DNA of 64,000 bases, taken from Verrucomicrobiota bacterium (GTDB taxonomy: Bacteria > Verrucomicrobiota > Verrucomicrobiia > Limisphaerales > CANJXF01). This document shows, in pieces, positions 3,910-58,739 of this stretch; the stretch's first letter is position 1, and the number at the start of each line of letters is the position of its first letter. The stretch spans positions 3,930 through 67,929 of the forward strand of contig JAYVSV010000003.1 of the NCBI GenBank assembly GCA_043775015.1. The letters are read 5' to 3'. The position numbers and the translations under genes were made by a program. The notes under the pieces were generated by a model. That model worked only from the letters and a program-made list of their open reading frames with translations, ran no database searches and was not told where the DNA came from.

Positions 3910-5475
3910 ATGAATTTCTGGCTCATCATCACGTTTGTTGCAGTGCTGCTTCCCCTCCACGCAAAAGATTACGATTTAATTTTGCGCAATGGCCGCATTG
4001 CGGATGGCACAGGCAATCCTGCTTTCTTCGCGGACCTCGGCATCGAAAGCGGACGCATCACCGCCATCGGGAAAATCACGGGACACGGCAAAAAAGAAAT
4101 CGAAGCGCGCGGTCTGGTGATTGCGCCGGGCTTCATTGATGTCCACACGCATGCCGAGGAAATCAACGAGCAACCGCGCGGAGAAAATTTCGTTCGCATG
4201 GGCGTCACCACATTGGTTCTGGGAAACTGCGGCGGCTCGGTGCTGAAGGTGGGCGAGTTTTTCAAAAAATTGGAGGAGATCAAAATGTCGCCCAATGTCG
4301 CGACGTTGATTGGTCATGGAACCGTGCGCGGCAAAGCGATGGGCGGCTCGTTTATGCGCCCACCGACGGATGCGGAGCTGGCGCAAATGAAATCGCTCGT
4401 TGAAGAAGCCATGAAAGAAGGCGCGTTCGGAATGTCCACCGGATTAATTTATTTGCCCGGTGTTTTTGCAAAGACGGAGGAAATCATTGAACTGGCAAAA
4501 GTCGCTTCCGCCTACGATGGCATTTATGCGACGCATCAGCGCAGCGAGAGCGACGAAATTTTCAAGTCGATCGACGAAATCATTCGCATCGCGCGCGAAG
4601 CCCACATCCGCGCGGAAATTTCGCACATCAAACTTTCGGGCAAATCAAATTGGGGCCAGACCGAAAAAGTTTTTGTGCAAATTGAAAAAGCACGCAGCGA
4701 AGGTCTGGACATCACGCAGGATCAATACGCTTACACGGCATCCAGCACGGGGATCAGCCAACTCGTGCCGGAAAGCGCGAAGGATGGCGGGACAAAAAAA
4801 ATGATCGAGCGCCTCGACGACGCGGAGCAGAAAGCGAAGGTGGTTACGGAAATGAAAGATTCTTTACACCGTCGTGGCAGCGAAAATTACAGCTATGCGG
4901 TGATCGCTTTTTACAAACACGACAAGTCTTTGAACGGATTGAATATTGTTGAGGCCGCGCAAAAAAGTGGCCGCAGCGCATCGCTCGACGATCAGATTGA
5001 AATGATTCTGGAGATAGAGCGGAATGGCGGTGCGTCGGCCGTTTTTCACGGCATGAGCGAATCCGATTTGCAGGCGTTCATGCGGCATCCGAACACGATG
5101 ATCGCCTCCGACAGCGGGATGAGGCAATTCAACGAAGGTGTCCCCCACCCTCGTGGTTACGGCAATAACGCCCGTATTTTGGGTCGCTATGTTCGCGAGG
5201 AAAAAGTTTTGCGTTTGGAAGATGCGATTCGCAAGATGACGTCGCTGCCGGCGAACACATTTCAAATCAAAGGGCGCGGTGAATTGCGCGAAGGCAACTG
5301 GGCGGACATCGTGGTGTTCGACCCCGCGACCGTGATCGACCATGGCACCTTCAACGACCCGCATCATTATTCGACCGGATTCAAATACGTTTTCGTGAAC
5401 GGTGGTTTGGTCGTGGAGGATGACAAACACACCGGAGCCAAGCCCGGAATGACGCTACGGCATGGGGCGAATTGA
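3910..5475 (+). CDS. N-acyl-D-amino-acid deacylase (D-aminoacylase) family amidohydrolase
   Basis: DLILRNGRIADGTGNP...APGFIDVHTHAE metal-binding motif and family-typical length. ATG at 3910 gives a signal-like N-terminus. Confidence 0.8.
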   Translation: MNFWLIITFVAVLLPLHAKDYDLILRNGRIADGTGNPAFFADLGIESGRITAIGKITGHGKKEIEARGLVIAPGFIDVHTHAEEINEQPRGENFVRMGVTTLVLGNCGGSVLKVGEFFKKLEEIKMSPNVATLIGHGTVRGKAMGGSFMRPPTDAELAQMKSLVEEAMKEGAFGMSTGLIYLPGVFAKTEEIIELAKVASAYDGIYATHQRSESDEIFKSIDEIIRIAREAHIRAEISHIKLSGKSNWGQTEKVFVQIEKARSEGLDITQDQYAYTASSTGISQLVPESAKDGGTKKMIERLDDAEQKAKVVTEMKDSLHRRGSENYSYAVIAFYKHDKSLNGLNIVEAAQKSGRSASLDDQIEMILEIERNGGASAVFHGMSESDLQAFMRHPNTMIASDSGMRQFNEGVPHPRGYGNNARILGRYVREEKVLRLEDAIRKMTSLPANTFQIKGRGELREGNWADIVVFDPATVIDHGTFNDPHHYSTGFKYVFVNGGLVVEDDKHTGAKPGMTLRHGAN

Positions 5476-16826: not shown

Positions 16827-16863
16827 TTGACATCTTTTCGTTTCTGGACAAATATCTGTCCAG
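16827..16863 (+). promoter_or_regulatory. candidate yefM-yoeB promoter/operator
   Basis: TTGACA at 16827-16832. Inverted repeat CTGGACA (16844-16850) / TGTCCAG (16857-16863) lies directly upstream of ATG 16866. Confidence 0.3.
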
Positions 16864-16865
16864 AT

Positions 16866-17123
16866 ATGAGTACCATCAGCTACACGACGGCACGCGAGAA
16901 TTTAGCCCGGACGATGGACCGCGTTTGTGACGATCGCGAGCCCGTGGTCATCACCCGCCAGAAACAACGTTCCGTCGTCATGCTTTCGCTGGAAGATTAT
17001 GAGTCATTGTCTGAAACGGCTTATCTGCTCAAAAGCCGCGCCAACGCACGCCGACTGCTCGCGGCCGCAAAGCAGTTGGAGGCCAGCAAAGGTAAATCCC
17101 GCAAGGTCAACCTCGAAGCATGA
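16866..17123 (+). CDS. yefM: Phd/YefM family antitoxin
   Basis: MSTISYTTARENLARTMDRVCDDREPVVITR... Overlaps the toxin gene by 4 nt (ATGA). Confidence 0.85.
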   Translation: MSTISYTTARENLARTMDRVCDDREPVVITRQKQRSVVMLSLEDYESLSETAYLLKSRANARRLLAAAKQLEASKGKSRKVNLEA

Positions 17124-17374
17124 ATCTGATTTTTTCGGATCAGGCCTGGGAAGATTATCAATATTGGCAGGAGACGGACAAAAAAATGATTAGGCGGATT
17201 CACGAATTACTTAAAGACATCCGGCGTAATCCGCACTCCGGTATAGGCAAACCTGAACCGCTGCGCCACGCCCTGGCTGGTTTTTGGTCGCGACGAATTG
17301 ACCAGGAGCATCGCCTGGTCTATCGCTTCACTGAGCAAGTAATTTTGCTGGCGCAAATGCGGTATCATTATTAA
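17120..17374 (+). CDS. yoeB: Txe/YoeB family toxin
   Basis: 84 aa with AWEDYQYW...GIGKPEPL...WSRRIDQEHRLVY...RYHY. Confidence 0.9.
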   Translation: MNLIFSDQAWEDYQYWQETDKKMIRRIHELLKDIRRNPHSGIGKPEPLRHALAGFWSRRIDQEHRLVYRFTEQVILLAQMRYHY

Positions 17375-17385
17375 TTCAAACCATC

Positions 17386-18822
17386 ATGACTCAACTCCCT
17401 CACATTCCCGTTCTCCGTCGCGGCAAAGCCTACGAAAGCCTCGACAAGATAAATATCACGAATCATCGCACCGGCGAAACGATGGCACAAGTCAGCACCG
17501 TCAACGCGGGAATTATTCGCAAAGATTTGCAACGGATCGGTGAATCTCGCGCGGCGGTGAAGAAGTTTTCCGTCGCGCAGCTCATCGAGATTTCGGCCAA
17601 GGCGGGCGATCTTTTCCTGAATGGCACCCTGCCCTTTGGCGACAAGGGCCACACGCAATCACCACAGGAATATATTGAGACGCTTTCGTCCACGAGCGGG
17701 CTGCCGCATGTGATGGTCCGGCGCAACATGCAGAAGGTTCATCACGCGCTGACGAATTTGAAAACGGTTTTGAATGGTTTGACGCGCGGGCTGGATCTCT
17801 CGATCCTCGACAGCGGTTTTGGCGAGCAGTTTGGGACAAAGCTCAGTTTCTTTCCCACCACGCAAGCGCTCGGCCTCGTCATGCCGAGCAATTCACCCGC
17901 AGTCAATTCACTCTGGCTTCCGGCGATTGCGCTGAAAATTCCGGTCATCATCAAACCGGGAAAAGAAGAGCCGTGGACGCCGTATCGTTTGATTCAGGCA
18001 TTCATCGCGGCAGGTTGCCCAGCGGAGGCGTTTGGATTTTATCCGACTGATCATGAAGGCGCGGGTGAAATTTTAAAAAGCTGCGGACGCGCTCTGATTT
18101 TCGGCGACAAAAATACGACAGCACAATATGCGAGCAATCCGGCGATCCAGGTTCATGGCCCGGGCTGGAGCAAGATTCTCATCGGCGACGATTGCATTGA
18201 AAATTGGCGCGACTATTTGGACGTGATGGTTTCATCCATATCCGACAACGGCGGGCGCAGTTGCATCAACGCTTCGGCCATCGTGGTTCCAAAATACGCG
18301 GCAGAGATTGCGGATGCATTGGCGCAAAAACTTGGGCCGATTCAACCGACAAAACCGGATGATGAAAATGCGAAACTCTCCGGCTTTGCGAATGTGAAAA
18401 TGGCGGAGTTCATCGAGGCGCAAATTGAGGATGGATTGAAAACTTCAGGCGCGACTGACGCGACGGCGAAATATCGCAACGGCTCGCGCAAGATCGAATT
18501 CGACGGTGGAACCTACATGCGGCCAACCATCGTGTTGTGCGACTCGTTTGCTCACCCGCTGTCCAACAAGGAATTTCTTTGTCCCTACGCCAGCGTCGTT
18601 CAAATTCCGCAAGCCGAGATGCTGAAACAAATTGGTTACTCTCTCGCGGTCACCGCGATTACGAAGGACAAGAATTTTATCGAACAACTGACGGAGTTTC
18701 CACACATCGAGCGATTGAACATCGGCCCGATTTCCACGATGAAAATTTCCTGGGATCAACCGCACGAGGGCAACATGTTCGAGTTTCTCTACAAACGGCG
18801 AAGTATCGAACGCGCAAGTTGA
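17386..18822 (+). CDS. LuxC-like / acylating aldehyde dehydrogenase-family reductase
   Basis: ALDH fold with catalytic Cys context NGGRSCINASAIVV. HGPGWS replaces the ELGGKS general-base motif, as in acylating/acyl-CoA-reductase-type ALDHs. Confidence 0.65.
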   Translation: MTQLPHIPVLRRGKAYESLDKINITNHRTGETMAQVSTVNAGIIRKDLQRIGESRAAVKKFSVAQLIEISAKAGDLFLNGTLPFGDKGHTQSPQEYIETLSSTSGLPHVMVRRNMQKVHHALTNLKTVLNGLTRGLDLSILDSGFGEQFGTKLSFFPTTQALGLVMPSNSPAVNSLWLPAIALKIPVIIKPGKEEPWTPYRLIQAFIAAGCPAEAFGFYPTDHEGAGEILKSCGRALIFGDKNTTAQYASNPAIQVHGPGWSKILIGDDCIENWRDYLDVMVSSISDNGGRSCINASAIVVPKYAAEIADALAQKLGPIQPTKPDDENAKLSGFANVKMAEFIEAQIEDGLKTSGATDATAKYRNGSRKIEFDGGTYMRPTIVLCDSFAHPLSNKEFLCPYASVVQIPQAEMLKQIGYSLAVTAITKDKNFIEQLTEFPHIERLNIGPISTMKISWDQPHEGNMFEFLYKRRSIERAS

Positions 18823-18895
18823 ACCATGTGTTCATGAATGCGATGGAGAATTACAGCGCGTGACACTAGCGTCAAATCTGCTAAGGTAAAACCAG

Positions 18896-19132
18896 ATGAA
18901 AACAGTGCCGACATATAATTTTCCTCAGGACGTTCCCATCTGGGTTGACGCGGAACGATTGAGCGGCGCACCCTGTTTCAAAGGCACGCGCGTGCCGGTG
19001 GACAGCCTTTTCAAAAATCTGGAAAGCGGCCTTAGCCTCGACGAATACCTGGATTGTTTTCCCGACGTGACGCGTGAACAAGCCGTTGCCGTTTTAGAAT
19101 ACGCCCACAAGGCGGCGCTTCAAGCTGCATGA
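18896..19132 (+). CDS. DUF433 domain protein (antitoxin-like)
   Basis: LSGAPCFKGTRVPVDSLFKNLESGLSLDEYLDCFPDVTREQAVAVLEY. Confidence 0.8.
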   Translation: MKTVPTYNFPQDVPIWVDAERLSGAPCFKGTRVPVDSLFKNLESGLSLDEYLDCFPDVTREQAVAVLEYAHKAALQAA

Positions 19133-19446
19133 AGGTTCTGCTGGATGCTTGCGTCCCGCGTCCGTTGCGCAATTTTCTCCTCAGCCACACCGTTCAAACC
19201 GCGCAGGAAATGGGCTGGGGAAAACTGAAAAATGGTGCGTTGCTTCAAGCCGTCGAACCGCAGTTCGACGCGTTTCTCACCAGCGATCTAAACCTCAAAT
19301 ACCAGCAGAACGTTGCTGGGCGAAAACTTGCAATTCTGGTTTTGCCCACCAACGACTGGCCAACGCTCCGGCGCATGACGGATAAAATTGCGGACAAAGT
19401 CGCCACGCTGAAGCCGGGCGATTTTGTTGAAATGCCGATGGAGTAA
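19129..19446 (+). CDS. DUF5615 / PIN-like (Mut7-C-type) protein (toxin-like)
   Basis: MKVLLDACVP...FLTSDLNL acidic motifs. 4-nt ATGA overlap with the DUF433 gene. Confidence 0.7.
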   Translation: MKVLLDACVPRPLRNFLLSHTVQTAQEMGWGKLKNGALLQAVEPQFDAFLTSDLNLKYQQNVAGRKLAILVLPTNDWPTLRRMTDKIADKVATLKPGDFVEMPME

Positions 19447-19449
19447 TTG

Positions 19450-19626
19450 GCAGCCGCGACAAATCGCAAGAAGCGCAAAACATTTATCGAACAATTGACG
19501 GAATTCCCGCACATCGAGCGCCTGAACATCGGCCCGATTTCCACAATGAAAATTTCCTGGGACCAACCGCATGAAGGGAACATGTTCGAGTTTCTTTACA
19601 AGCGTCGTTCGATTGAGCGGGCTTGA
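19450..19626 (+). pseudogene. orphan second copy of the 3' end of the LuxC-like gene
   Basis: 19483-19623 encodes the same 47 aa as 18676-18816 (FIEQLTEFPH...YKRRSIERA), followed by its own TGA. No upstream gene body. Confidence 0.85.
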
Positions 19627-19628
19627 TC

Positions 19629-19717
19629 CCGTAGCCGCGTCTCAGCAGAGCGCGGGTGACTCTCTTGCATCGTGATATGAAAACGTTCGACCGCGCTCTG
19701 CCGAGACGCGGCTACGG
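19629..19717. repeat. 27-bp-stem hairpin element
   Basis: CCGTAGCCGCGTCTCAGCAGAGCGCGG (19629-19655) pairs with CCGCGCTCTGCCGAGACGCGGCTACGG (19691-19717) with 1 mismatch and a 35-nt loop. The right arm carries the stop codon of the 910-aa gene. Confidence 0.85.
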
Positions 19718-22444
19718 AGTTTGTGGCGCATCGAAAATATTCCCGATCTTTTGCGGCTTGCGCGAAGTGGACAGGAGCGGCGGAATCATTTCATCCCCCC
19801 GCGAAAAATGGCGCGAATCAAATTGCCAGAGCCAGAGACCGCCATCGGCGGCGAGGCTGGTCACACTCCCGAATTGCGACAAAACCGCGACCCAATCGGA
19901 ATGAATTCCCAAGCGCACGGCAGAAGCGCTCTCCGGCCTTGCCAACGAATCTTCAGGAAACTCCCATCGCCACATTGTTCCGTCTGCTTTTAAGGTGATG
20001 ATTAATCCACCTTCGCCAGCAACGGCACGCCAGTCGGTATCTTTTCCAAGTTGAATGTCTTTCTTCACCAGCCCCATTTGATAATTCTTTCCTGTGGTTT
20101 CCCAAGCGGCGCTGATGACGAATTTTCCATCGTCGAGAACTGAAACCTGAAAACCGCCCTGTCGCCCCGACACCCAAGCGAGTGATCCTGCCTTGCCGTC
20201 ACCCAAGTAATCTGAGCGAAACACACTGAGTGTCTCATCCAAGCGCAAGCTATTGGTGTCGCGGGTGTACAGCGGTGGATAAATCCACGTCTCACCGTTT
20301 TTTTTCCGAAATGCAATTCTCCCTTCTGCAGAAAAAATCCCCGCCCAATCGGATTCGGTTCCCAAACGTTGCGGCTCGAATACGCGCAATCCCGGCCATT
20401 GTTTCTTGGAAGGCACTCCCCATCGCCAAAGTGTGCCATCCGCTTTCAACAAAAATGCTTGAAGTCCGTGACTGGTCACGCTGCTCCAATCGTTTTCATT
20501 ACCGAATGGGGTGAGCATTGGTGTTGGCGGCACGTTGGTATGAAAAAGCAGTTCAAAATTCTGCGGCTTTTCCGAAACCCATAAACTTCCGTCCTTTTGC
20601 ACGCCAACTGAGCCCCAAAAAGTTGTCGCGACACTCGTCCAATTTGTTCCGCTCCAAAAGCCGCTGGCTTGCCCTGATATTTTCCAGTTGCTTGAAAAAA
20701 TTGCCGAAAAAGGTGTTCCACCCATCCTGATTCTGGTTGACCAAATTTTCCCATCGTCGAGTTGAATCAACACTCGCGAACCGGACGACTGGATTTTGGG
20801 CGCTGATGATTTTTCCAACCGAACGATGCCATGCGCTGGTTCAAGCGGTGTGAGGAATTCCCAAGCGCGATGGTAAATGGCACTCGTCATTCCAATCACG
20901 AACGCGAGCGACGCGACGAACACGGCTGCGTTTCGTCGCCAGACTTTCCAGCCGATCAAGACGCGTTTGAAATTCCAATACATCAACGCAAGTAGCGTAA
21001 GCGTCATTACAGGAACACCAATGAGATAGATCAGCCAACCGCGCCAGAGCGGGAAGGGGAAAATTCTTGGAGCCTCGTCGAGAACTTTCTGCATTATAAA
21101 CGACACGAGAATTCCCAGCACCGCAGGGGCGAGCGATTGCAACGTGTTGCGCGAAAGCGTCGAGGCGTAGAAGGAAACGGCGGCGATGATGGTGGCGATT
21201 CCGAGCAAAATGAGAACGGGCAATGAATTGTTAATTGCCGGAAAAATGAAGTGGGCAAGTGTTCCTCCGCGCTGCAACATAAAATAATCGGAAAGCCCGC
21301 CGAGAAACTTAGGATGAAAATCTGGAAGAATCCGGGTTCCTTCCAACAGCAGCGGCAGCGCGATTGCCAGAAATAACGACAGCATCATTGCGCTAACGAA
21401 TTTAATCCAAAATTGCGTGCGGCGTCGCACCGGTAAACAGAGTTGGCTTTCCAAGGTTCCAAGTTTGCGTTCCTCCGTGACGGCGGCGCAACCCACGAGC
21501 AACGGCATGGCAAACCAGAGAAGCCAAAACCAGTTCAGCGCAAATCCTGTCGCGGAAGAATTATTAAAGTTTCCGAATTTGCGAACGACGATGACGGCCA
21601 GATGCAGCAACGCCAACGCGCCCGCCATGATGAGTTGCGATTGGTGCAGTTGAAATTCTTTGAAGAACAGAGCGGCGCGCGGTCGCAAGGTTCGTTCGGC
21701 GCGAGAATTAGTTTTCCCTTTCGTCCGCTGGAGAAATTCTGGCAGCGCGATGTTGCCGCCAGTCCATTGCACGTCTTGCGCGCGCAGGAACAGCCAGCGC
21801 GCGAAAAGAAATCCAGCAATGCTATAAATGCTCAGGACGATAAAGATAGGAGTCTCGACTGATACGGAAGTTTTTTCTGCAATGGTCATTGTCACCATAG
21901 CCAGCGCTGCGGGAAAGATCACTGTGAACCAAAACGCCGCAGCCACCTGGCGGAGCAAAAGCACGGTCCAAAGCCCTCCGGAATAAACAATCAGTGAAAA
22001 AAGAACGCTCGTGACAAATACCCCCTGTAGCTTCTTCGTACTGTCGGCGGAAAAATGGTCGTAAGTCACGGCCATAGCGTGGTGTTTAAAAGAGAGCCAC
22101 CACGCCGCCCAGAGAATCACAATTGCGATGGCGAGCAAAACGGTTTTCGTCCGCCAGATTTTACCGCGCGAAATAGGTTGCGAGAGTAAGTTGGAGAAAG
22201 TTCCGGCGCTGAATTCATGGCCAAATGAGTGCAGCACCATCATCAAAACCAGTGCGGGACTTAGTAAAAAGGGCAGAATGAACCAAAGGTCTGTTTTCCC
22301 CGCATTCTCATAAACTTTTCTCATCCCGGACATGGGACTTTCATTTGAAATCAATAAAAGAGAGAACGAAAAAGATGAAAGAATTAAAGCGCCGATAAAG
22401 GTTGGCAACAATGCTCGAATTTCTTTTCTGATCAGTGCGTTCAT
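19712..22444 (-). CDS. ABC-2-type permease fused to C-terminal RCC1-like 7-blade beta-propeller
   Basis: About 520 aa of polytopic membrane region, followed by repeats LDDGKIWSTR, VQKDGSLWVSE, LKADGTLWRWG, RKKNGETWIYP, VLDDGKFVISAAW, LKADGTMWRWEF, LAADGGLWLWQF. Confidence 0.6.
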   Translation of the reverse strand: MNALIRKEIRALLPTFIGALILSSFSFSLLLISNESPMSGMRKVYENAGKTDLWFILPFLLSPALVLMMVLHSFGHEFSAGTFSNLLSQPISRGKIWRTKTVLLAIAIVILWAAWWLSFKHHAMAVTYDHFSADSTKKLQGVFVTSVLFSLIVYSGGLWTVLLLRQVAAAFWFTVIFPAALAMVTMTIAEKTSVSVETPIFIVLSIYSIAGFLFARWLFLRAQDVQWTGGNIALPEFLQRTKGKTNSRAERTLRPRAALFFKEFQLHQSQLIMAGALALLHLAVIVVRKFGNFNNSSATGFALNWFWLLWFAMPLLVGCAAVTEERKLGTLESQLCLPVRRRTQFWIKFVSAMMLSLFLAIALPLLLEGTRILPDFHPKFLGGLSDYFMLQRGGTLAHFIFPAINNSLPVLILLGIATIIAAVSFYASTLSRNTLQSLAPAVLGILVSFIMQKVLDEAPRIFPFPLWRGWLIYLIGVPVMTLTLLALMYWNFKRVLIGWKVWRRNAAVFVASLAFVIGMTSAIYHRAWEFLTPLEPAHGIVRLEKSSAPKIQSSGSRVLIQLDDGKIWSTRIRMGGTPFSAIFSSNWKISGQASGFWSGTNWTSVATTFWGSVGVQKDGSLWVSEKPQNFELLFHTNVPPTPMLTPFGNENDWSSVTSHGLQAFLLKADGTLWRWGVPSKKQWPGLRVFEPQRLGTESDWAGIFSAEGRIAFRKKNGETWIYPPLYTRDTNSLRLDETLSVFRSDYLGDGKAGSLAWVSGRQGGFQVSVLDDGKFVISAAWETTGKNYQMGLVKKDIQLGKDTDWRAVAGEGGLIITLKADGTMWRWEFPEDSLARPESASAVRLGIHSDWVAVLSQFGSVTSLAADGGLWLWQFDSRHFSRGDEMIPPLLSTSRKPQKIGNIFDAPQTP

Positions 22445-23346
22445 GCGTTCGCCTTTAGAATTTTTGACGCGACAAAAATTTCTTCGAGCGAAAGGGATTC
22501 GCAGAGCAACTCTTCGGGTTGACGTGAACGCAAACCTTCGAGCAGTTGTTCGCTGTTACCGTTGGCGAGGATTTCCACTTCGCGGCCGGTTTGTTTCACA
22601 TTCAATGCGCCAATTAAATTTCCAAGCTGTGGCGGCTCCGCGAAGCGCGCGCGGATTTTTTTGAAACGGTCGCGAGCAGCGTCGGCATCCATCGTCAAAA
22701 GTTCGCGGCCTCCTTCGATGATGGTGAATTGATCAATCAAACCTTCAAATTCTGAAATCAAATGAGTCGAAACAAAAACGGTTCTGCGCGCGGCGTCGCC
22801 GGATTGGAAGGCACCGATGACGGTTTCGATGAATTCGCGGCGCACAATGGGATCGAGGCCGGAAGTAGGTTCGTCGAGCACGAGCAATTCGGGTTCGGGA
22901 CAAATGGCGGCGATGAGCGCGAGTTGGGTCTTCTGCCCTTTCGACATCGAACTGGCTTTTTGCGTTTCGTTCAGACCGAAGCGGCGCAACAAATCAGATT
23001 CGATGTCGCGATTCCAATGTTTGCGGAAGGAGGCGAAGTAATTGAGCGAGTCGCGCACAGACATCCACGGATAAAACGCGACGGCGTCCGGCACGTAGGC
23101 GAGGCGGGATTTCACGGCGACTTCATCGCGCTGCGGATTGAGGCCAAACACGCGCACGGAGCCGGACATGGGGCGCAGCAAATTCAACAGACATTTGATC
23201 GTGGTGGTTTTGCCCGCTCCATTGCGCCCGAAAAATCCGTAGCAACGACCGGGCAGCACTTTGAGGCTGAGGCCGTTCACGGCGTCCGTCTTGCCGTAGC
23301 GATGGTGGAGATTTTGGATTTCAATGATGGGAGTTTCGTTGGTCAT
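22441..23346 (-). CDS. ABC transporter ATP-binding protein
   Basis: Start is MTNETPIIEIQNL. Walker A GRNGAGKTT, signature MSKGQKTQL, Walker B LLVLDEPTSGLD. 4-nt overlap with the permease. Confidence 0.9.
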   Translation of the reverse strand: MTNETPIIEIQNLHHRYGKTDAVNGLSLKVLPGRCYGFFGRNGAGKTTTIKCLLNLLRPMSGSVRVFGLNPQRDEVAVKSRLAYVPDAVAFYPWMSVRDSLNYFASFRKHWNRDIESDLLRRFGLNETQKASSMSKGQKTQLALIAAICPEPELLVLDEPTSGLDPIVRREFIETVIGAFQSGDAARRTVFVSTHLISEFEGLIDQFTIIEGGRELLTMDADAARDRFKKIRARFAEPPQLGNLIGALNVKQTGREVEILANGNSEQLLEGLRSRQPEELLCESLSLEEIFVASKILKANA

Positions 23347-23374
23347 AAATTTTTCCTGGGAGCGTGTTTGAAAA

Positions 23375-23462
23375 GTAGCAGCCGAGGTAACGAGGCTCTG
23401 ACTTGTCGGGCATCGTTTCGTGAAGCGCCGGAATATTTGAGCCTCGTTACCTCGGCTGCTAC
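23375..23462. repeat. perfect 24-bp-stem hairpin between gntR and the ABC ATPase gene
   Basis: GTAGCAGCCGAGGTAACGAGGCTC (23375-23398) pairs with GAGCCTCGTTACCTCGGCTGCTAC (23439-23462). 40-nt loop. Confidence 0.9.
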
Positions 23463-30589: not shown

Positions 30590-31465
30590 TTAAATTACAA
30601 TTTCAGTGCCGATTCCTGCATCAGTGAAAATTTCCAGCAGCACGGAATGTTGAACCCGGCCATCCACAAAAGAAACTTTTTCCACGCCAGCCGTAATCGC
30701 GACAACGGCGCTATCCACCTTTGGAATCATTCCTTTGTCGATCACACCGGTTTTTTTCAATCCGTCCACTTCGGAAATTTGCAGGTGCGAAATCACGGTG
30801 GACGGATCTTTCGGATCACGCATCAAACCTGGAACGTCGCTCATGAAAACAAGTCGTTTCGCCTTCAGCGCGATCGCGACCTGCGCCGCCGCAACATCCG
30901 CATTGCAGTTGTAAATTTTCCCGTCTTCACCGAGTGCGGTTGGACTGATGACCGGTGTGATACCCTGCTTGATACAGGCAAGCAGCGGCGCAGTGTTCAC
31001 TTTAAAAACTTCACCGACGTAACCGATGTCGAGTGGTTGTCCCTGCGAATCTTTGAGAAAAGTTTTTTGACATTTGAAAATTTCTGTTCCAGAGAAACCT
31101 TTGGCCGCGCCGCCGAGGGAATTGATCGTCGCGACAATCTCTGGATTGATTTCAGAAGAAAGAACGTCGTCCACAATCTTCACCGTCGCCTCATCGGTCA
31201 CGCGCTGGCCTTGAATGAAACTGGCTTTCAATCCCGCCGCTTCCATCGCGCGAGTGATTGCTTTGCCGCCGCCGTGAACGACCACCGGATTAATTTCGAC
31301 TGCTTCAAGAAAAACAATGTCGCGCGCCACGCCATTGCGAATCGCCGCGTCCGGGGAATCCATAAAACTTCCGCCGTATTTCACGACGAACGTTTCGCCG
31401 CTGAATTTCTGAATGTAAGGCAACGCTTCAAGCAACGTCGCGGCTTTGGAGATGAGGTCTTGCAT
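30590..31465 (-). CDS. argB: acetylglutamate kinase
   Basis: FVVKYGGSFM, VVVHGGG, NADVAA motifs. Confidence 0.9.
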   Translation of the reverse strand: MQDLISKAATLLEALPYIQKFSGETFVVKYGGSFMDSPDAAIRNGVARDIVFLEAVEINPVVVHGGGKAITRAMEAAGLKASFIQGQRVTDEATVKIVDDVLSSEINPEIVATINSLGGAAKGFSGTEIFKCQKTFLKDSQGQPLDIGYVGEVFKVNTAPLLACIKQGITPVISPTALGEDGKIYNCNADVAAAQVAIALKAKRLVFMSDVPGLMRDPKDPSTVISHLQISEVDGLKKTGVIDKGMIPKVDSAVVAITAGVEKVSFVDGRVQHSVLLEIFTDAGIGTEIVI

Positions 31466-31468
31466 GAG

Positions 31469-31792
31469 TTAAATGAAAAACGAAGCCGGGTTTGCGCGCC
31501 AGTTTTGTGCGCCGTAGATGACACGCAGAATTTCAATCTCTTTTTCCAATCCGCGATAAAAAACCAACCAACGATTGAAAGGTGGTGGCAGGACGCTGAA
31601 GCGAACGCCGGCGAGACGGCGATGTTTCAATCGCGCCATCGGGCCGGATTCAGGAAATTTCGCCAATCGGTCAAACGCTTTGAAGGTTGCGTCCAAAAAA
31701 CACCGTGCTGCTTTCGGATTGTCCGCAAAAATCCAGCGTGCGCCTTCCACCAGGTCATGGTCGGCTTTCGGCTTGGTGCGATAGCCGCTCAT
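31469..31792 (-). CDS. parE: ParE/RelE-fold type II toxin
   Basis: 107 aa. DLVEGARWI...FLDATFKAFDRLAKFPESG...WLVFYR...IEILRVIYGAQN matches the ParE pattern. Confidence 0.8.
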   Translation of the reverse strand: MSGYRTKPKADHDLVEGARWIFADNPKAARCFLDATFKAFDRLAKFPESGPMARLKHRRLAGVRFSVLPPPFNRWLVFYRGLEKEIEILRVIYGAQNWRANPASFFI

Positions 31793-32055
31793 TTCACTTT
31801 CAGTGCCTGATGATAAATGCGTTTCTTACGTTCATCCGTCATCCGCACGCTCTCGCCGCTGTCCAATCCTTCCAGCAACAGCTCTTCCAAATCTTCGCGC
31901 CCATTCACCGAACACCCGCGAGGTCCGGCGTTGCGTTCGAGCGCATCGGCCAGCCGCAACGAATGGCGGATCACTTCACCTTCGTTGGCGAACTGTCCCG
32001 TGGCGATCTGTCGCTGGACGATGCGCTTGTAATAGGGAGTCAATGTTTGGCTCAT
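31789..32055 (-). CDS. parD: ParD-type (RHH, CC2985-like) antitoxin
   Basis: MSQTLTPYYKRIVQRQIATGQFANEGEVIRHSLRL. 4-nt overlap with parE. Confidence 0.7.
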   Translation of the reverse strand: MSQTLTPYYKRIVQRQIATGQFANEGEVIRHSLRLADALERNAGPRGCSVNGREDLEELLLEGLDSGESVRMTDERKKRIYHQALKVK

Positions 32056-32198
32056 ACGGAAGAAATTTCTATCCATCGCCAATGGGAGTCAAGCGTCCGA
32101 AGCGGCCCGTATTTCACGACAAATATTTCGCCACTGAATTTCTGGATGTAAAGCAACGCTTCGAGCAACGTTGCGGCTTTGGAGATGAGGTCGTGCAT
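32052..32198 (-). pseudogene. orphan 5' fragment of argB (31 homologous codons, then an out-of-context tail)
   Basis: MHDLISKAATLLEALLYIQKFSGEIFVVKYG versus argB MQDLISKAATLLEALPYIQKFSGETFVVKYG. The 48-aa ORF ends in a TGA that overlaps the parD ATG (ATGA). Confidence 0.85.
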
Positions 32199-32203
32199 GT
32201 CGA

Positions 32204-54172: not shown

Positions 54173-54299
54173 CTGATTGCACTTGCGGCTCTCCGCATTC
54201 TGCGAGAAACAAGGGCGAGTGAATATCGAAAAGAAATTCCGGCGCGGAGTGCTCGGTTCCGGCAAAGGGTCGAATTTCGTCGCGATCTCGGAGCCTTGC
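54173..54299 (+). pseudogene. duplicated purN 5' region (leader plus first ~27 codons), fused in frame to the DUF1553-family gene
   Basis: 127 nt aligns gap-free with 58694-58820 (12 mismatches). VNIEKKFRRGVLGSGKGSNFVAISEPC versus purN VNNEKKFRLGVLGSGKGSNFVAIAEAC. Confidence 0.85.
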
Positions 54300-57083
54300 A
54301 TCAAGAAGCATCACCCCTGCATCACGCTTCCACTTTGGCTTGTTCTTTTCGCACTCTTGTCGTTCGCGCTGACGGCTCGGCTTGATGCCGGCGTGGACTA
54401 CGTCAAAAGCGTTAAACCACTGTTGAAGGAGCGATGCTACGCGTGCCACGGGGCACTCAAACAAAAGGCCCGACTGCGGCTCGACACGGTCGAGTTGATG
54501 CTCCAAGGAGGCAAATCTGGTGCGGCCTTCACGCGCGGGAAACCGGAGGAAAGCCTCATCATTCAACGCGTGACTGCGCCCGACATGGAAGAGCGCATGC
54601 CGCCCGAACACGAAGGCGAGCCGTTCACCCCGGCGCAGGTTGCGCTGCTCCAAGAGTGGATCGTCACAGGTGCTTCCTCTCCGGCGGATGAAAGGGCCGA
54701 GACAGACCCGAAGGAACATTGGGCCTTCCGCCAACGGATGCGTCCGCCGGTTCCGGCAGTAGCCAATGCGAAATGGGTGCGCAATCCCATTGATGCCTTC
54801 CTTGCTAAACAGCACGAGGACCACGGCCTCACCCCGCAACCCGAAGCGTCACGGGCGGTTCTCCTGCGCAGGTTGTATCTCGACTTGATCGGTTTGCCGC
54901 CGAGCCTCGCGGAAATCACCGTCTTCGAGAACGACTCATCACCCGATTGGTATGAGCGCGCTGTGAATTATTTGCTCGATGACCCGCGTCACGGGGAACG
55001 CTGGGCGCGGCACTGGATGGACATTTGGCGCTACAGCGATTGGTGGGGCCTCGGCGACCAGCACCGCAACAGCCAGAAACATATTTGGCACTGGCGGGAT
55101 TGGATTGTGGAATCGCTCAACGCAGACACGCCCTACGACGAGATGATCCGCCTCATGCTGGCCGCTGACGAATCGCATCCCAACGACCTCCAGAAACTCC
55201 GCGCCACCGGCTTTCTCGCCCGCAACTGGTTCCTGTTCAATCGCAATCAGTGGATGGATGAAACCGTCGAGCATGTGAGCAAAGGGTTTCTCGGTCTCAC
55301 GGTGAACTGCGCCAAGTGCCACGACCACAAATTCGACCCCATCTCGCAGGTTGATTACTACCGGATGCGCGCGTTTTTTGAGCCGTATCACGTGCGGATG
55401 GACATGCTCCCCGACGAAGTGGATCTCTTACGCGACGGTATTCCCCGCGTCTTCGACGGTCTGCTCGATACTCCCACGTATCGCTTTGTGCGCGGCGACG
55501 AGGGCAAGCCCGACAAATCTGCCGTCATTGCACCCGGCGTTCCCACGCTGTTCGCCTTCACTCAGTTGGACATCCAGCCCATCGCGTTCCCGCCGGAAGC
55601 CTGGCAACCAGAGCGACGCCCCTGGGTTCTCGATGCCCACCTCGCCACGGCCCGGAAGAAAGTGGAGATTGTGGAGAAAGCTCTTACCCCGGCGCGGGAA
55701 AGACTCGCCGCTGCTCAAACGCGCGAGGCAAAAATAGTCGCGACAGCAACTGCGCCTGCTTTGAAGCCGACTTCACCCGACGAGGCCAAGGCCGCAGTCG
55801 CCACCGCGCACGGCGAGCTAAATGTCGCCGAACTGGCCTTGACCGTGGCCACGGCGGAACTCCTGAGCATCGAAAGTAATTGCACAGCAATGCGCGCTGC
55901 GTGGGCAAGGGCCGATGCTGGCCCCAACCAAGCGAGTGCTGCCCTGGCCAAGCTTGAACGCGATGCGACTTCGTCTGCAATACGCGCGGAACGCGAAGTC
56001 GCCGTCGCGAAGGCCCGCCACGCCATTGCCGATGCCGGGCTTCGCCTTGCCAGCCCGACTGACCCCAAGAAAGACGCCATCGAGAAGGAATTGAAAACCG
56101 CCCGCGAGTCCCTCGACACAGCCACCAAAGCCGTGACTGCTCCGATCACGGAGACCAACAAAATCACCCCGCTCTACGGAGCAAAATGGACACCCACTCG
56201 ATTCTTTAATTCGCAAAAAGACGACCCCACCGTCGAGTTCGGCCCCACAAGCAGTGGCCGCCGCACCGCACTCGCCGGCTGGATTACCGACCCACGCAAC
56301 CCGCTCACCGCGCGCGTCGCTGTAAATCACCTCTGGGCGCGTCATCTGGGAACGCCACTCGTATCCACCACGTTTGACTTCGGGCGCAAGAACGGATCAC
56401 CCACGCATACTGAGTTGCTTGATTGGCTGGCGTCTGAGTTGGTGGATCATGGCTGGAGCATGAAACACTTGCACCGGCTGATCGTCACTTCGGCTGCCTA
56501 TCGAATGAATTCGTCGGCAGCGGGCGGTGAATCCAACATGGCGAAGGATCCCGACAACCTGGGCTGGTGGCGGCGCACACCCATCCGCATCGAGGCAGAG
56601 GTGGTGAGGGATTCTATTCTCGCGCTCGCCGACCAACTGGACACAGCCATCGGTGGCCCCTCGGTTCCGACGGCCAGCCAGGCCGACTCGAAACGCCGCA
56701 GCCTTTATTTCTTCCACTCGAACAACGAGCGAAATCTTTTCCTCACCACATTCGACGAAGCCAGTGTGAAGGAATGTTACCGCCGGGAACAGAGCATCGT
56801 CCCGCAGCAGGCGCTTGCTCTTTCTAACAGCGGCCTCGTGCAGGATTGCACCCACCACATCGCCGCCCGTTTCGGCGCAAACGTTCCAGCGAATGACGAC
56901 CCCGCGTTTGTCCGGCAGGCATTTCGCGGCGTGCTCGGCGTTGAACCTCAACGGGCAGAAGTCGCAGCCTGCGTCACGACCATGGACGCCTGGCGCAAGA
57001 TCCCGGACACTACTCACGATCAGGCGCGCTCTCATCTCATCTGGGCACTACTCAACCACAACGATTTTGTCATGCTGCGTTAA
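54219..57083 (+). CDS. PSCyt / DUF1549 / DUF1553 family protein (planctomycete-type cytochrome-c-motif protein)
   Basis: CYACHG heme motif after the signal-like segment LPLWLVLFALLSFALTA. CAKCHDHKFDP. DUF1553-like C-terminus. The only in-frame start codons (GTG 54219, GTG 54249) lie in purN-derived sequence. Confidence 0.75.
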   Translation: MNIEKKFRRGVLGSGKGSNFVAISEPCIKKHHPCITLPLWLVLFALLSFALTARLDAGVDYVKSVKPLLKERCYACHGALKQKARLRLDTVELMLQGGKSGAAFTRGKPEESLIIQRVTAPDMEERMPPEHEGEPFTPAQVALLQEWIVTGASSPADERAETDPKEHWAFRQRMRPPVPAVANAKWVRNPIDAFLAKQHEDHGLTPQPEASRAVLLRRLYLDLIGLPPSLAEITVFENDSSPDWYERAVNYLLDDPRHGERWARHWMDIWRYSDWWGLGDQHRNSQKHIWHWRDWIVESLNADTPYDEMIRLMLAADESHPNDLQKLRATGFLARNWFLFNRNQWMDETVEHVSKGFLGLTVNCAKCHDHKFDPISQVDYYRMRAFFEPYHVRMDMLPDEVDLLRDGIPRVFDGLLDTPTYRFVRGDEGKPDKSAVIAPGVPTLFAFTQLDIQPIAFPPEAWQPERRPWVLDAHLATARKKVEIVEKALTPARERLAAAQTREAKIVATATAPALKPTSPDEAKAAVATAHGELNVAELALTVATAELLSIESNCTAMRAAWARADAGPNQASAALAKLERDATSSAIRAEREVAVAKARHAIADAGLRLASPTDPKKDAIEKELKTARESLDTATKAVTAPITETNKITPLYGAKWTPTRFFNSQKDDPTVEFGPTSSGRRTALAGWITDPRNPLTARVAVNHLWARHLGTPLVSTTFDFGRKNGSPTHTELLDWLASELVDHGWSMKHLHRLIVTSAAYRMNSSAAGGESNMAKDPDNLGWWRRTPIRIEAEVVRDSILALADQLDTAIGGPSVPTASQADSKRRSLYFFHSNNERNLFLTTFDEASVKECYRREQSIVPQQALALSNSGLVQDCTHHIAARFGANVPANDDPAFVRQAFRGVLGVEPQRAEVAACVTTMDAWRKIPDTTHDQARSHLIWALLNHNDFVMLR

Positions 57084-57095
57084 CCATTTCCATTT

Positions 57096-58553
57096 ATGAA
57101 ACCTGGCTTCAACCCACTCCACCACCTCCGCTCGCGCCGAACTTTTCTTGCCGACATGGGCATGGGTTTCACCGGACTCGCACTCGGCGCCATGCTCCAG
57201 CGCGATGGCTACGCCAGTAGCGGCGGGTGGACGCCACCGACCGGCCTGCCGCATTTCGCGCCCAAAGCCAAGAACGTCATCTGGCTCTTCATGAACGGAG
57301 GTGTGAGCCATGTGGAAAGTTTCGACCCCAAACCCATGCTCACCAAGTATGGCGGCAAAACCATCGCGGAGACGCCATTCAAGGACACCCAGGACCCGAA
57401 GAAACTTGCGCTCGAACGGCTGGTGGTGCCCGATGCCAACGGCAACCAGCGCAACACGCTTTATCCGCTGCAAGTCGGTTTCAAAAAATATGGAGAAAGC
57501 GGTATTGAAGTGAGCGACTGGTTCCCGCACATCGCGCAGAACGTGGACAAACTGGCCGTGGTGCGCTCGATGTGGACGACCGACAGCAATCACGGCGCGC
57601 AGACCCAGTTTCACTCCGGACGCCACCAGAATGACGGTGATTTTCCGACGCTCGGCGCCTGGGTCCACTACGGGCTTGGCAGCCTCAACGATAACCTGCC
57701 GCAGTTCATCTCCATTGGTGCCCGCGAATACTGGAACAAACGCGACGGCCATTACCTCGGCCCCGCGCACGACGCCGTGCCACTGCGCATTGATCCGGAC
57801 AACCCGCTCGATTTCGGCAAACCCGAACGCCCATTTTCCGCCGAAGCGCAAACCTTGGGTCTGGATCTCATCCAGAAGCTCAACGGGCTGCGCGGCGTCG
57901 AGTATCCGCAAGACCCCACGATGGCCGCCCGCGTCGCCTCTTATGAGCTGGCTTTCCGCATGCAGCGCTCGGTGCCCGAGGTGCTCGACTTCTCAAGGGA
58001 GACTTCCGAGACCAAGGCCCTTTATGGCATCGACCAGCCGCATTGTCGCGACTTTGCCATGCAACTCCTCGCCGCCCGGCGCTTCGTCGAGCGTGGCGTG
58101 CGCTTCATCCAGATTCAGCACGGCGGCAGCGGCGCGGGCGCCTGGGACGCGCACGGCGGACTCAAGGACAACCACGCCAAAAATTCGCTCGCCGTCGATC
58201 AACCCACCGGCGCTCTGCTCCAGGACCTCGAACGACGCGGTCTGCTCGACGAGACGATTGTCATTTTTGCCACGGAGTTCGGTCGCACGCCTGGTTCGCA
58301 AGGCTCCGACGGGCGGGATCATCACATCTTTGGCTTCTCCGTCTGGATGGCGGGCGGCGGACTCAAACGCGGGGTCGTCCACGGTGCGACTGATGAGATC
58401 GGATTCCACGCCACGGAGAACCGCCACTACGTCACGGACATCCACGCCACCATTCTCCACCAACTCGGCCTCGACTCCCGCCAACTCGAGATCCCAGGCC
58501 GCAAGCGCCTCGAGATTGACCACGGTAAACCGATCCACGAAATCATTGCGTGA
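57096..58553 (+). CDS. DUF1501 (sulfatase-fold) protein with Tat-type signal
   Basis: [20 protein letters not shown] twin-arginine leader, [19 protein letters not shown]...GRDHH. Confidence 0.9.
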
Positions 58554-58739
58554 AGCTTACGATCTCCCTTCCCAAGCAGCGTCAGCGGAAGACCCGCCAA
58601 GAGTGACGAGAGAAGATTGCCGATAGCCAGTCATCTCTTCGCGATCTTCTATCTTCCAGCCTCTGCATTCTGCTGTTTTCCAAATCCGAAACACTGATTC
58701 CGCTTGCGACTGTTCGCATTCTGCGAGAAACAAGGGCTA

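Follow-up and report, generated by a model that had tools for sequence, protein, structure and literature searches.

A toxin-antitoxin-like cassette between two silently diverged copies of a gene end in a Verrucomicrobiota bacterium, a likely footprint of recombinase-free gene capture

In the window, that is, the whole 64,000-nucleotide stretch of DNA analyzed here, a putative toxin-antitoxin gene pair lies between two copies of the 3' end of a conserved enzyme gene. The copies (positions 18676-18816 and 19483-19623) have an identical 47-residue translation, FIEQLTEFPHIERLNIGPISTMKISWDQPHEGNMFEFLYKRRSIERA, and differ from each other only at silent sites. The locus is most likely a natural footprint of recombinase-free gene capture, a process that is already known, and it represents no new type of element. 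As the best reading of its structure we propose one-sided homologous capture, also called homology-facilitated illegitimate recombination (HFIR), with displacement of the resident gene end, and we give this reading about an even chance. The features of the locus are as follows.

17386..18822, plus strand: host gene of the aldehyde dehydrogenase superfamily ('LuxC-like'), 478 aa (open reading frame; Pfam Aldedh, 4e-16)
18194..18822, plus strand: 3' part of the host gene from the crossover to the stop, inferred donor segment (mosaic relative to L397; left limit approximate, 18194-18346)
18676..18816, plus strand: copy 1, the last 47 codons, on the working gene, followed by Ser-TGA (18817-18822)
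18823..18844, plus strand: 22-nt segment between the host stop and the conserved cassette left end
18845..18895, plus strand: conserved cassette left end, GGAGAATTACAGCGCGTGACA..., shared by homologous cassettes in unrelated contexts
18896..19132, plus strand: DUF433 gene, 78 aa, antitoxin-like (Pfam DUF433, PF04255, 3.8e-18, above the curated cut-off)
19129..19446, plus strand: 105-aa partner, DUF5615-like, putative toxin (weak DUF5615 match; homologs with PF18480)
19447..19482, plus strand: 36-nt segment joining the cassette to copy 2, ending at an abrupt, apparently illegitimate joint (19482/19483)
19483..19626, plus strand: copy 2, displaced 5'-truncated gene end, 47 codons and TGA (19624-19626), intact
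19629..19717, no strand assigned: hairpin with a 27-bp stem (arms 19629-19655 and 19691-19717; 26 of 27 bases complementary; dG -61 kcal/mol; z -7.25)
19712..22444, minus strand: convergent gene of a 910-aa ABC-2-type membrane protein (Pfam ABC2_membrane_2), the ancestral downstream neighbor

The recurrence of the last 47 host codons after the cassette had been reported in the initial annotation, and every figure given there was reproduced exactly on re-counting: 22 nucleotides differ, falling in 20 codons, all 20 changes are synonymous, and a serine codon switch (AGT/TCG) is among them. The copies are thus 84% identical, with 13 transitions and 9 transversions, no indel in copy 2 relative to copy 1, and a longest identical run of 22 nt; a weak similarity detected by repeat finders reaches 13 nt further 5' (18663/19470). 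In the codon alignment that the initial annotation had proposed as a check, the Nei-Gojobori method counts 29 synonymous and 112 non-synonymous sites and yields pS of 0.68, dS of about 1.8, and dN of 0, and the probability that 19 random single substitutions would all be silent is about 4e-12. The same 84% identity is found between orthologs from different genera that share an identical 47-aa tail, and, together with dN of 0, this supports the earlier proposal that both copies diverged inside working genes of different lineages. That all 22 differences are silent would be explained by purifying selection on both ends until the event and by the invariance of the 47-aa tail in the clade. Copy 2 is in frame both with the toxin gene and with an unannotated 59-aa open reading frame (19447-19626), whose TTG start abuts the toxin stop and has GGAG 3 nt upstream, only TAA separating the two frames. 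No gene call in the public collection covers this open reading frame, the exact-protein look-up has no record of it, and the junction peptide KKRKTFIEQL has no match in any GTDB representative genome.

The cassette genes at 18896..19446 on the plus strand are co-oriented, overlap by ATGA, and are as originally described, except that the name DUF5615 had to be softened: the 105-aa protein matches PF18480 with an E-value of 0.016 and 15.5 bits, below the cut-off of 23.8, while several of its 73-82% identical homologs carry precomputed PF18480. Some of its 516 homologs at E<=1e-10 bear the JGI name 'predicted nuclease of predicted toxin-antitoxin system'. We predict that the cassette is a type II toxin-antitoxin-like pair, with both the toxin and the antitoxin roles being predicted from protein similarity. 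The left-end sequence also precedes homologous cassettes in L290, L286, L315, L389, and L304, and presumably constitutes the cassette's own promoter/operator; a promoter search found no consensus promoter on the plus strand. A scan with the 17-nt cassette left end returned 106 matches, which are mostly random, the pattern being too short, and of which four are real cassettes. In L004, a DUF433 homolog with 82% amino acid and 79% nucleotide identity occupies the same hotspot, and close cassette homologs occur in at least ten other Verrucomicrobial contexts. The GC content over the insert shows no anomaly; such a host-like composition and the close homologs in these contexts make donors of the cassette plausible. 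One 152-aa toxin homolog (P0013) was considered as a toxin fused to a gene tail and rejected, as its extension is unrelated.

The host gene is the last gene of an operon encoding an MFS transporter, an adenylating enzyme, and a reductase, and its product is conserved with about 80% amino acid identity across Verrucomicrobiota. Its NCBIfam and PDB matches are to distant aldehyde dehydrogenases only, and the exact-protein look-up gave no record. The initial annotation had the coordinates of this gene right, and its family name, LuxC-like, had to be softened, as the protein matches Pfam Aldedh and no LuxC model. Compared with L397, the nearest relative found, which has an empty site and is 12% divergent overall, the gene is 90.2% identical at 17386-18345, 80.6% at 18346-18675, and 85.8% at 18676-18816, whereas a control pair of sisters, L398 and L399, is about 89.5% identical in the first two segments and 95.7% in the third. 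The maximum-chi-square breakpoint between the window and L397 falls at about 18194, its value being reached by none of 1000 permutations. Judging from these comparisons, the host gene is mosaic relative to L397 from about 18.2-18.35 kb onward; the recombinant lineage could be that of L397 instead of that of the window. Which copy is foreign does not follow from nucleotide identity alone, since of the 22 differing sites L397 shares 8 with copy 1 and 12 with copy 2. A wider attempt to recognize the resident copy in this way was abandoned, as L001-L005, L081, and L397-L399 are all 82-88% identical and the 141 nt are too short and saturated. The relatives searched include neither a donor nor an empty-site strain that is very close to the window.

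The resident status of copy 2 is derived instead from flanking synteny, L397 being nearly equidistant from the two copies over the last 141 nt. Unlike copy 1, copy 2 is contiguous with the ancestral downstream context, consisting of TGATCC, the hairpin, and the convergent gene. TGATCC after the stop is common to copy 2 and L397, the ABC-2 gene is syntenic in L004, L005, L019, L074, and L397, and L004 retains a gene-end remnant of about 12 nt ahead of the same hairpin. The 27-bp-stem hairpin noted earlier behind copy 2 is indeed present and is the only such hairpin in the window, but it is a resident intergenic feature outside the insert: in L004 it is 82% conserved, adjoins the convergent gene 3.2 kb from the gene end, and lies away from any cassette boundary. 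It matches no Rfam family and, situated between convergent genes, is probably a bidirectional terminator. On the other side of copy 2, the last 13 nt of the 36-nt junction segment resemble the gene sequence upstream of codon 432, with 9 matches in the final 20 nt. Homology also stops abruptly at the joints in L005, L290, L074, and L019, and short repeats are seen at the joints of L290 (GACA/GACA and GATGGA) and L074 (TCAACCACA).

The two copies lie on a single molecule. Independent Logan assemblies of other read sets (L280 and L281) are 100% identical to the window across both copies, and a third sample (L282) has the same structure with 99.2% identity. All seven SNPs of L282 fall at 19473-19557, within 85 nt, and none in the other 843 nt; six of the seven are silent in the copy-2 frame, one (19473) lies in the part not homologous to the gene, and the copy-2 variants do not match copy 1. 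By a binomial estimate the probability of this silent bias is about 0.001 if all seven SNPs arose in situ. Their clustering indicates a recombination patch from another functional allele, which alone may explain the third-position bias.

The arrangement of a gene end, cargo, and a second, 5'-truncated gene end is repeated at this gene in four further Verrucomicrobial MAGs, which come from other studies.

L005: cargo, PIN/Phd-like pair; copy 2, 46 codons
L019: cargo, NTase-like; copy 2, about 22 or more codons
L054: cargo, HNH-like; copy 2, about 33 codons
L074: cargo, 1012-aa ECF-sigma fusion; copy 2, 22 codons

The truncation points vary between events (codon 432 in the window and 433 in L005, about 445, and about 454-458), no recombinase was found in the cargo of these four loci, and in L054 and L019 the two copies are identical over 45-66 nt. 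The search of relatives with and without the cassette, suggested in the initial annotation, thus yielded the empty site of L397 and four loci with other cargo. An ancient fixed tandem arrangement, named there as an observation that could overturn the proposal, is not what the orthologous loci display, as these arose independently and differ in cargo and truncation point. Within the window, the same footprint is seen at the 5' ends of an argB-like and a purN-like gene, and in L057 and L058 at LuxE-like 3' ends. In L290, the homologous cassette lies amid 3'-end fragments of another gene, gcvPB, with up to three further partial gcvPB-end copies downstream, the third of which (4004-4098) is visibly more decayed; the 7.3-kb locus contains no full-length gcvPB. 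Older displaced copies in L057, L058, and L074 carry frameshifts or stop codons, as is expected of relics. A scan of genome contigs for double matches to the degenerate motif DQPHEGNMFEF gave 120 blocks, none with two matches, and hence no new case. Two candidate orphan-fragment loci, L220 and L249, proved to be frameshifted full-length genes, and the self-comparison repeats in L073, L095, L174, and L214 are not duplicated gene ends but repeats within proteins or REP-like elements.

Under one-sided homologous capture, a linear (not circular) fragment from a related Verrucomicrobial lineage, carrying the 3' part of the orthologous aldehyde dehydrogenase-family gene and the downstream DUF433/DUF5615 cassette, would have entered the cell by a presumed uptake route. 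The gene part would have served as the homologous anchor for a RecA-type crossover at about 18.2-18.35 kb, while the other end, which lies 36 nt beyond the toxin stop and has no homology, would have been joined illegitimately at codon 432 of the resident gene. As a result, the working gene would now end in donor sequence (copy 1), and the resident last 47 codons (copy 2), not being replaced, would have been shifted 807 bp downstream together with the resident hairpin and the convergent gene, so that copy 2 would be a young pseudogene fragment. In this reading, the direction of transfer, the linear form of the intermediate, the exact crossover point, and the uptake route are inferred. The mosaic host gene, the ancestral context of copy 2, the L290 cassette amid gcvPB ends, and the lack of a recombinase agree with the idea, put forward from the start, that cassette and foreign gene-end allele came in together. 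Besides the missing donor and the mosaic that could lie in the L397 lineage, two further considerations count against capture: RecA-dependent anchoring at about 16-20% divergence between donor and recipient would be very inefficient, and the confinement of the L282 SNPs to the copy-2 region is not predicted by a simple 'inert relic' model. To our knowledge, no natural competence or transfer route has been described for the host organism. Linear import and a circular intermediate would look alike at the level of sequence.

A circular route is less likely. In a Campbell-type insertion-duplication, an 807-bp circle of the cassette and one gene end, made by flanking-repeat recombination in a donor already so structured, would have entered by a single crossover inside the 141-nt end; in that case each copy would be a hybrid of donor and recipient, with the repeats acting as portable homology arms. 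In the laboratory, a circle with a gene-end fragment gives the same topology, although such constructs are artificial. This route requires no illegitimate joint at insertion and equals the two-step model for Rhs C-terminal displacement, variable-length core fragments included (PMC2935791). The identity of 45-66 nt between the copies in L054 and L019 would suffice for the crossover, whereas the window copies, given their 84% identity and 22-nt longest run, make a poor substrate, and the mosaic reaches 330-480 nt upstream of copy 1, more than the circle would carry. L290, where gcvPB ends surround the cassette and the locus lacks the full-length gene, looks as if the arms had co-travelled, but flanking repeats are missing in most contexts of the cassette family, and the junction peptide is absent from all GTDB representatives. 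The copy-2 variation of L282 could reflect different crossover points or alleles; alternative crossovers between the same partners would, however, require the variants to match copy 1. We also consider it unlikely that displaced gene ends act more generally as portable arms with which a cassette is excised, transferred, and re-inserted by host homologous recombination into whatever genome possesses the gene concerned. If so, silent differences between the arms would guard the insert against deletion, and a class of 'homology-arm hitch-hiking' toxin-antitoxin cassettes would account for the recurrence at conserved gene ends; in its strongest form, this reading makes the 59-aa copy-2 frame a selected third component. 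A functional copy 2, translated as the 59-aa protein or by toxin read-through and kept by selection as a mimic of the host-enzyme C-terminus, would fit any insertion mechanism and seems very unlikely to us. The complete lack of non-synonymous changes and indels in spite of dS of about 1.8, the frame shared with the toxin, and the six of seven L282 SNPs silent in that frame, including the one at 19473 (P of about 0.001), speak for it. The displaced copies of the other loci do not conform, being 22-34 codons long, on the strand opposite to the cargo, or affected by stops, frameshifts, or several replacements; the frame has remained uncalled, its junction peptide is missing in other species, and seven SNPs in 85 nt versus none in 843 nt resemble a patch from another functional allele.

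Toxin-antitoxin modules often outlast the decay of the mobile elements that carried them, and e14 is a 15-kb prophage with its own integrase. The classic pattern of integrase-mediated insertion, in which the target gene receives a new end from the element while its old end persists at the far junction, is known from e14/phage 21 at E. coli icd (Hill et al. 1989, summarized in PMC6379469) and is present in the window, the displaced pseudo-3'-end measuring 163 bp in icd and 144 bp here. The locus could therefore be a remnant of such an element or of a CIME, left with the toxin-antitoxin pair between attL and attR after deletion of the integrase and most of the cargo, which we regard as quite unlikely. 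The truncation points of the window and L005 are only one codon apart; among all events, however, the boundaries vary, in contrast to the fixed att core of e14, and several unrelated genes, as well as 5' ends, show the footprint too. The insert, of just 0.66 kb, has 22-36 nt of non-cassette sequence per side with no shared core and no inverted repeats. In line with the initial annotation, no integrase, transposase, or other recombinase was detected in the insert or in the large open reading frames of the window that were scanned, nor in the cargo of the four other loci, and no terminal inverted repeat is present. Two weak tests point the same way: a tyrosine-recombinase motif screen of 485 downstream open reading frames from 276 loci gave no candidates, and a Pfam scan of 146 representative open reading frames showed none among the 25 commonest families listed. 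The simplest route to direct repeats around an insert, an in-place tandem duplication or a long target-site duplication at cassette insertion followed by divergence, is highly improbable: about 75% of the changes in an unconstrained copy would be non-synonymous, and none was seen in 20 codons (about 4e-12), the AGT/TCG switch has no single-step silent path, and dS of about 1.8 implies a great age at odds with an indel-free copy 2. An assembly chimera of two co-assembled strains, named in the initial annotation as something that would overturn the proposal, is hardly credible at all: the window is probably metagenomic and all relatives are MAGs, yet three independent read sets reproduce both junctions and an analogous structure exists in four unrelated MAGs. 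Several other readings were discarded. For an integron gene cassette, the window has no intI, its sole palindrome being the resident, near-perfect 27-bp hairpin; for a diversity-generating retroelement, no reverse transcriptase was found among the open reading frames scanned, and the substitutions are of all types and all silent. Xer/dif-type and MITE/TIR readings were likewise considered and dropped.

One-sided homologous capture has close parallels among known systems. The displacement of Rhs C-termini (Jackson et al. 2009) was explained by homologous recombination on the conserved part (PMC2935791). As with Rhs and the orphan cdiA-CT/rhs-CT modules, cargo separates an intact gene from downstream, 5'-truncated fragments of its conserved 3' region, the fragments vary in length and may form strings of successively displaced pieces (compare L290), and no recombinase is encoded by the element. 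In contrast to Rhs, where the tips encode different toxins and serve to diversify the protein, the end displaced here encodes an identical peptide, the host is a metabolic enzyme, the real cargo is an unrelated toxin-antitoxin pair, and the duplication is a by-product. Effector-immunity modules of the Vibrio cholerae T6SS are proposed to have been sequentially displaced by HFIR (Kirchberger et al. 2017, PMC5361080), which was demonstrated experimentally in Acinetobacter, Pseudomonas stutzeri, and Streptococcus pneumoniae (references in PMC5361080). On the capture reading, a conserved upstream gene provides the one-sided anchor in both cases, the joint opposite is illegitimate, and old material is moved downstream instead of being replaced; displacement of this type is rarer than clean double-crossover replacement. 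The present case differs by a far more diverged anchor than in experimental HFIR (16-20% in the mosaic gene part) and by a footprint that includes a perfectly preserved homeologous gene end. The minimal mobile elements of Neisseria described by Saunders and Snyder are reportedly small recombinase-free cassettes between conserved genes, moved by host homologous recombination; unlike the window locus, they rely on two conserved flanks that differ from each other, and no duplication is left behind.

While HFIR is well documented in the laboratory, its natural footprints have mostly been inferred from polymorphic-toxin loci. The footprint described here is unusually clean, with a perfectly preserved displaced end, a mosaic host gene, and a relative that has an empty site; the silent-site divergence of the displaced end dates the donor. 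Orphan gene-end fragments are easily mis-annotated as small open reading frames or N-terminal extensions (for example, at 54177), and they can be used as markers of recent gene gains and for inference of donors. The footprint is also common: the 64-kb window alone has three, and about 2.2 Mb of Verrucomicrobial sequence has at least ten. These observations suggest that one-sided capture is a routine way of small-gene gain in uncultivated Verrucomicrobia, especially of toxin-antitoxin pairs, without mobile-element machinery.

The host gene (17386-18822), the last member of an operon with an MFS transporter, an adenylating enzyme, and a YefM/YoeB pair, is convergent with the gene of a 910-aa ABC-2-type membrane protein. 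Its 478-aa product belongs, as a distant member, to the aldehyde dehydrogenase (ALDH) superfamily, although the name "LuxC-like" given in the initial annotation proved loose. The 3' end of this gene, 47 codons at 18676-18816 followed by Ser-TGA (copy 1), recurs at 19483-19623 with its own TGA at 19624-19626 (copy 2), and both stretches encode the peptide FIEQLTEFPHIERLNIGPISTMKISWDQPHEGNMFEFLYKRRSIERA. The synonymous-only divergence originally described was reproduced: 22 nt are changed in 20 codons, all 20 of them synonymously, including an AGT/TCG serine switch. The codon-level comparison proposed at that time, with 29 synonymous and 112 non-synonymous sites, gives pS 0.68, dS of about 1.8, and dN 0. 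Identical runs are at most 22 nt long, and weak similarity reaches 13 nt further 5'. In-place duplication is excluded by these silent-only changes, the chance of drawing only silent changes in 19 random single substitutions being about 4e-12.

The cassette between the two copies consists of the following genes.

18896-19132: DUF433 gene (Pfam, 3.8e-18)
19129-19446: gene of a 105-aa DUF5615-like putative toxin (weak match, E 0.016), overlapping the DUF433 gene by ATGA

The DUF5615 domain is present in several homologues of the 105-aa protein. Verrucomicrobial data contain many toxin homologues with 75-90% identity, which occur in at least ten contexts, for instance, after hisG, after moaA, or beside another ParE pair. 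The conserved unit starts with GGAGAATTACAGCGCGTGACA (window 18845), about 50 nt ahead of the DUF433 gene, and ends just beyond the toxin stop. Since the unit ends at the cassette and flanking repeats are absent in most contexts, the gene-end duplication is not a property of the cassette family. The GC content of the insert equals that of its surroundings. As initially noted, the cassette has no recombinase or terminal inverted repeats: scanning of the insert and of large ORFs throughout the 64-kb window found no integrase or transposase gene, and no inverted repeats bound the insert.

Assembly chimerism is excluded by matching contigs from three other sequencing runs, found by searching for exact matches to the toxin and antitoxin proteins. 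L280 (SRR22198267) is 100% identical to 17619-23394 and spans both copies, L281 (SRR23617269) is 100% identical to 18977-23394, and L282 (SRR22198269) contains 18756-19683 at 99.2% identity. Because contigs of other runs reproduce the locus, both copies reside on one molecule in several samples. All seven SNPs of L282 fall within 19473-19557, a stretch comprising the junction and the left part of copy 2, with none in the remaining 843 nt. In the reading frame of copy 2, six of them alter third positions and are silent; one of these six lies outside the gene homology, and the changes do not bring the sequence closer to copy 1. If a third functional allele had contributed a short patch by recombination, this would account for the third-position bias, but not easily for the left limit of the region. 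Selection on an unannotated 59-aa ORF (19447-19626), which is in frame with the toxin gene and whose TTG start abuts the toxin stop, would account for that limit. Arguing against such selection, no gene call corresponds to this ORF elsewhere, other species lack its junction peptide, and displaced copies at other loci clearly decay. The L282 contig begins at 18756, immediately after the copy-1 stretch equivalent to the SNP region.

The best nucleotide match of copy 1 is in L004 (90.8%) and that of copy 2 in L005 (87.2%), while the closest relative, L397 (95% aa identity, empty site), carries the base of copy 1 at eight of the 22 differing sites and that of copy 2 at 12. Nucleotide identity gives no decision on the resident copy, and context is more informative. 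After copy 2 come TGATCC and sequence homologous to the L397/L004 intergenic region as far as the convergent gene; the sequence after copy 1 is unrelated. Further, identity between the window and L397 is 90.2% in 17386-18345, 80.6% in 18346-18675, and 85.8% in copy 1, the last two segments being no closer than other genera. In the control sister pair L398/L399 it is about 89.5% in the first two segments and 95.7% in the third. The maximum-chi-square breakpoint between the window and L397 is at about 18194, and the observed value was reached in 0 of 1000 permutations. Such a mosaic would be expected if the imported segment started inside the host gene and continued through copy 1 into the cassette, although the L397 lineage, not the window, may be the recombinant one. 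The mosaic host gene, the silent-only changes, and the ancestral flank at copy 2 support the earlier proposal that two working gene ends diverged and the cassette came with a foreign allele.

The 27-bp-stem hairpin reported after copy 2 is real (19629-19717, dG -61 kcal/mol, z -7.25). It overlaps the final codons of the convergent ABC-2 gene, occurs once in the window, is conserved in L004, and has no match in Rfam. Since it has no T-tract, it is not a canonical intrinsic terminator.

We compared orthologous loci, 160 fetched from genomes and metagenomes and 119 obtained via a motif scan. Four further loci contain a second, 5'-truncated copy of the host-gene end downstream of inserted DNA, with no recombinase in their cargos.

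Inserts downstream of the host gene in related loci
L005: PIN/Phd-like pair on the opposite strand; copy 2 of 46 codons, from codon 433
L019: NTase-like gene; copy 2 of about 22 codons, with traces further upstream
L054: small HNH-like ORF; copy 2 of about 33 codons
L074: 1012-aa ECF-sigma fusion protein; copy 2 of 22 codons, with an in-frame stop
L004, 6561-9746: 3.2-kb islet between the ALDH-family gene and the hairpin

The L004 islet contains a DUF6883 gene, two small paralogous ORFs, and an orphan DUF433 gene (79% nt identity to that of the window) with an esterase gene in place of the toxin partner. The gene-end remnant is only about 12 nt long and directly precedes a hairpin 82% identical to that of the window. 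The ALDH-family gene of L004 has an in-frame insertion of about 41 codons, and this gene is frameshifted in two MAG contigs, L220 and L249, by either sequencing error or pseudogenization.

In the window, the YefM/YoeB pair (16827-17374) separates the adenylating-enzyme and ALDH-family genes, which overlap directly (ATGA) in the related locus L003. As other relatives carry different cargo of 1.2-3.6 kb at this junction, it is a second insertion hotspot; no duplication was found there in the window.

Repeated gene ends were also observed at other genes, those in L057 and L058 being added by self-comparison of 291 sequences (about 2.2 Mb, window included).

Repeated ends of other genes
31374-31466 and 32107-32199, minus strand: 5' end of the argB-like gene 30590-31465, 93 nt, 90% identical
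54173-54299 and 58694-58820: 5' end of a purN-like gene with about 45 nt upstream, 127 nt, 91% identical
L057, 2367-2481 and 3207-3320: LuxE-like 3' end, around a toxin-antitoxin-like pair
L058, 291-453 and 4384-4556: LuxE-like 3' end, around a 3.9-kb insert with a 1145-aa gene
L290, 2758-5427: four or five gcvPB 3'-end pieces (124-aa fragment ORF, 8-codon remnant, 52-codon copy, two decayed copies)

The argB-like duplication, a 5'-end mirror image of that at the host gene, comprises the first 31 codons around a ParD/ParE toxin-antitoxin pair (insert 31469-32082), and the orphan upstream copy has five silent and three replacement codons. The purN-like repeats surround a 4.4-kb insert (about 54300-58693) with a PSCyt/DUF1549/DUF1553 gene and a DUF1501 gene, and the orphan fragment gives ORF 54177-57083 a false N-terminal extension. 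The displaced LuxE-like copies are frameshifted in both loci. The L290 cassette, homologous to that of the window (toxin 84% aa identity), is flanked by 160-nt repeats of the gcvPB 3' end, 92% identical. The 8-codon remnant is fused to its left end at GATGGA microhomology, and two more partial copies lie downstream, at 4004-4098 (visibly more decayed) and 5333-5427; the 7.3-kb locus has no full-length gcvPB. Genes of rve- and HTH_Tnp_1-type transposases are located near this cassette. REP-like direct repeats in relatives (L095, 3063-3197 and 3778-3912; L174, L214, and L389) were rejected as unrelated to gene-end duplication; those of L095 flank an ORF whose C-terminus, judged by eye, resembles an IS200/RAYT-type transposase.

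Truncation points vary among the events, and homology stops abruptly on the cargo side, with short microhomologies at most. From these sequence comparisons we favor one-sided homologous capture by linear import, giving it about an even chance. Donor DNA with the 3' part of the host gene and the cassette would have recombined homologously within the host gene, its far end would have been joined illegitimately at codon 432, and the resident 47 codons would have been displaced, not replaced. That all copy differences are silent would follow from purifying selection acting on both ends up to the event and from the invariance of the tail in the clade. For the T6SS arrays of V. cholerae, homology-facilitated illegitimate recombination was proposed to give the same outcome (PMC5361080). 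Integration of a circular intermediate by one crossover, as proposed for Rhs tip displacement (PMC2935791), is a possible but doubtful route: no identical stretch shared by the copies exceeds 22 nt, the mosaic tract reaches well upstream of copy 1, and for these reasons linear import is preferred. It is unlikely that the repeats function as portable homology arms or that selection maintains copy 2 as an ORF, and still less likely that the structure is the remnant of an integrase element, like e14 at icd (PMC6379469).

The locus exemplifies, in a well-preserved natural form, a known process in which capture of foreign DNA without a recombinase displaces the end of a gene. In this case a toxin-antitoxin cassette was captured at a metabolic gene, and gene-end footprints of this type appear unusually common in the lineage.
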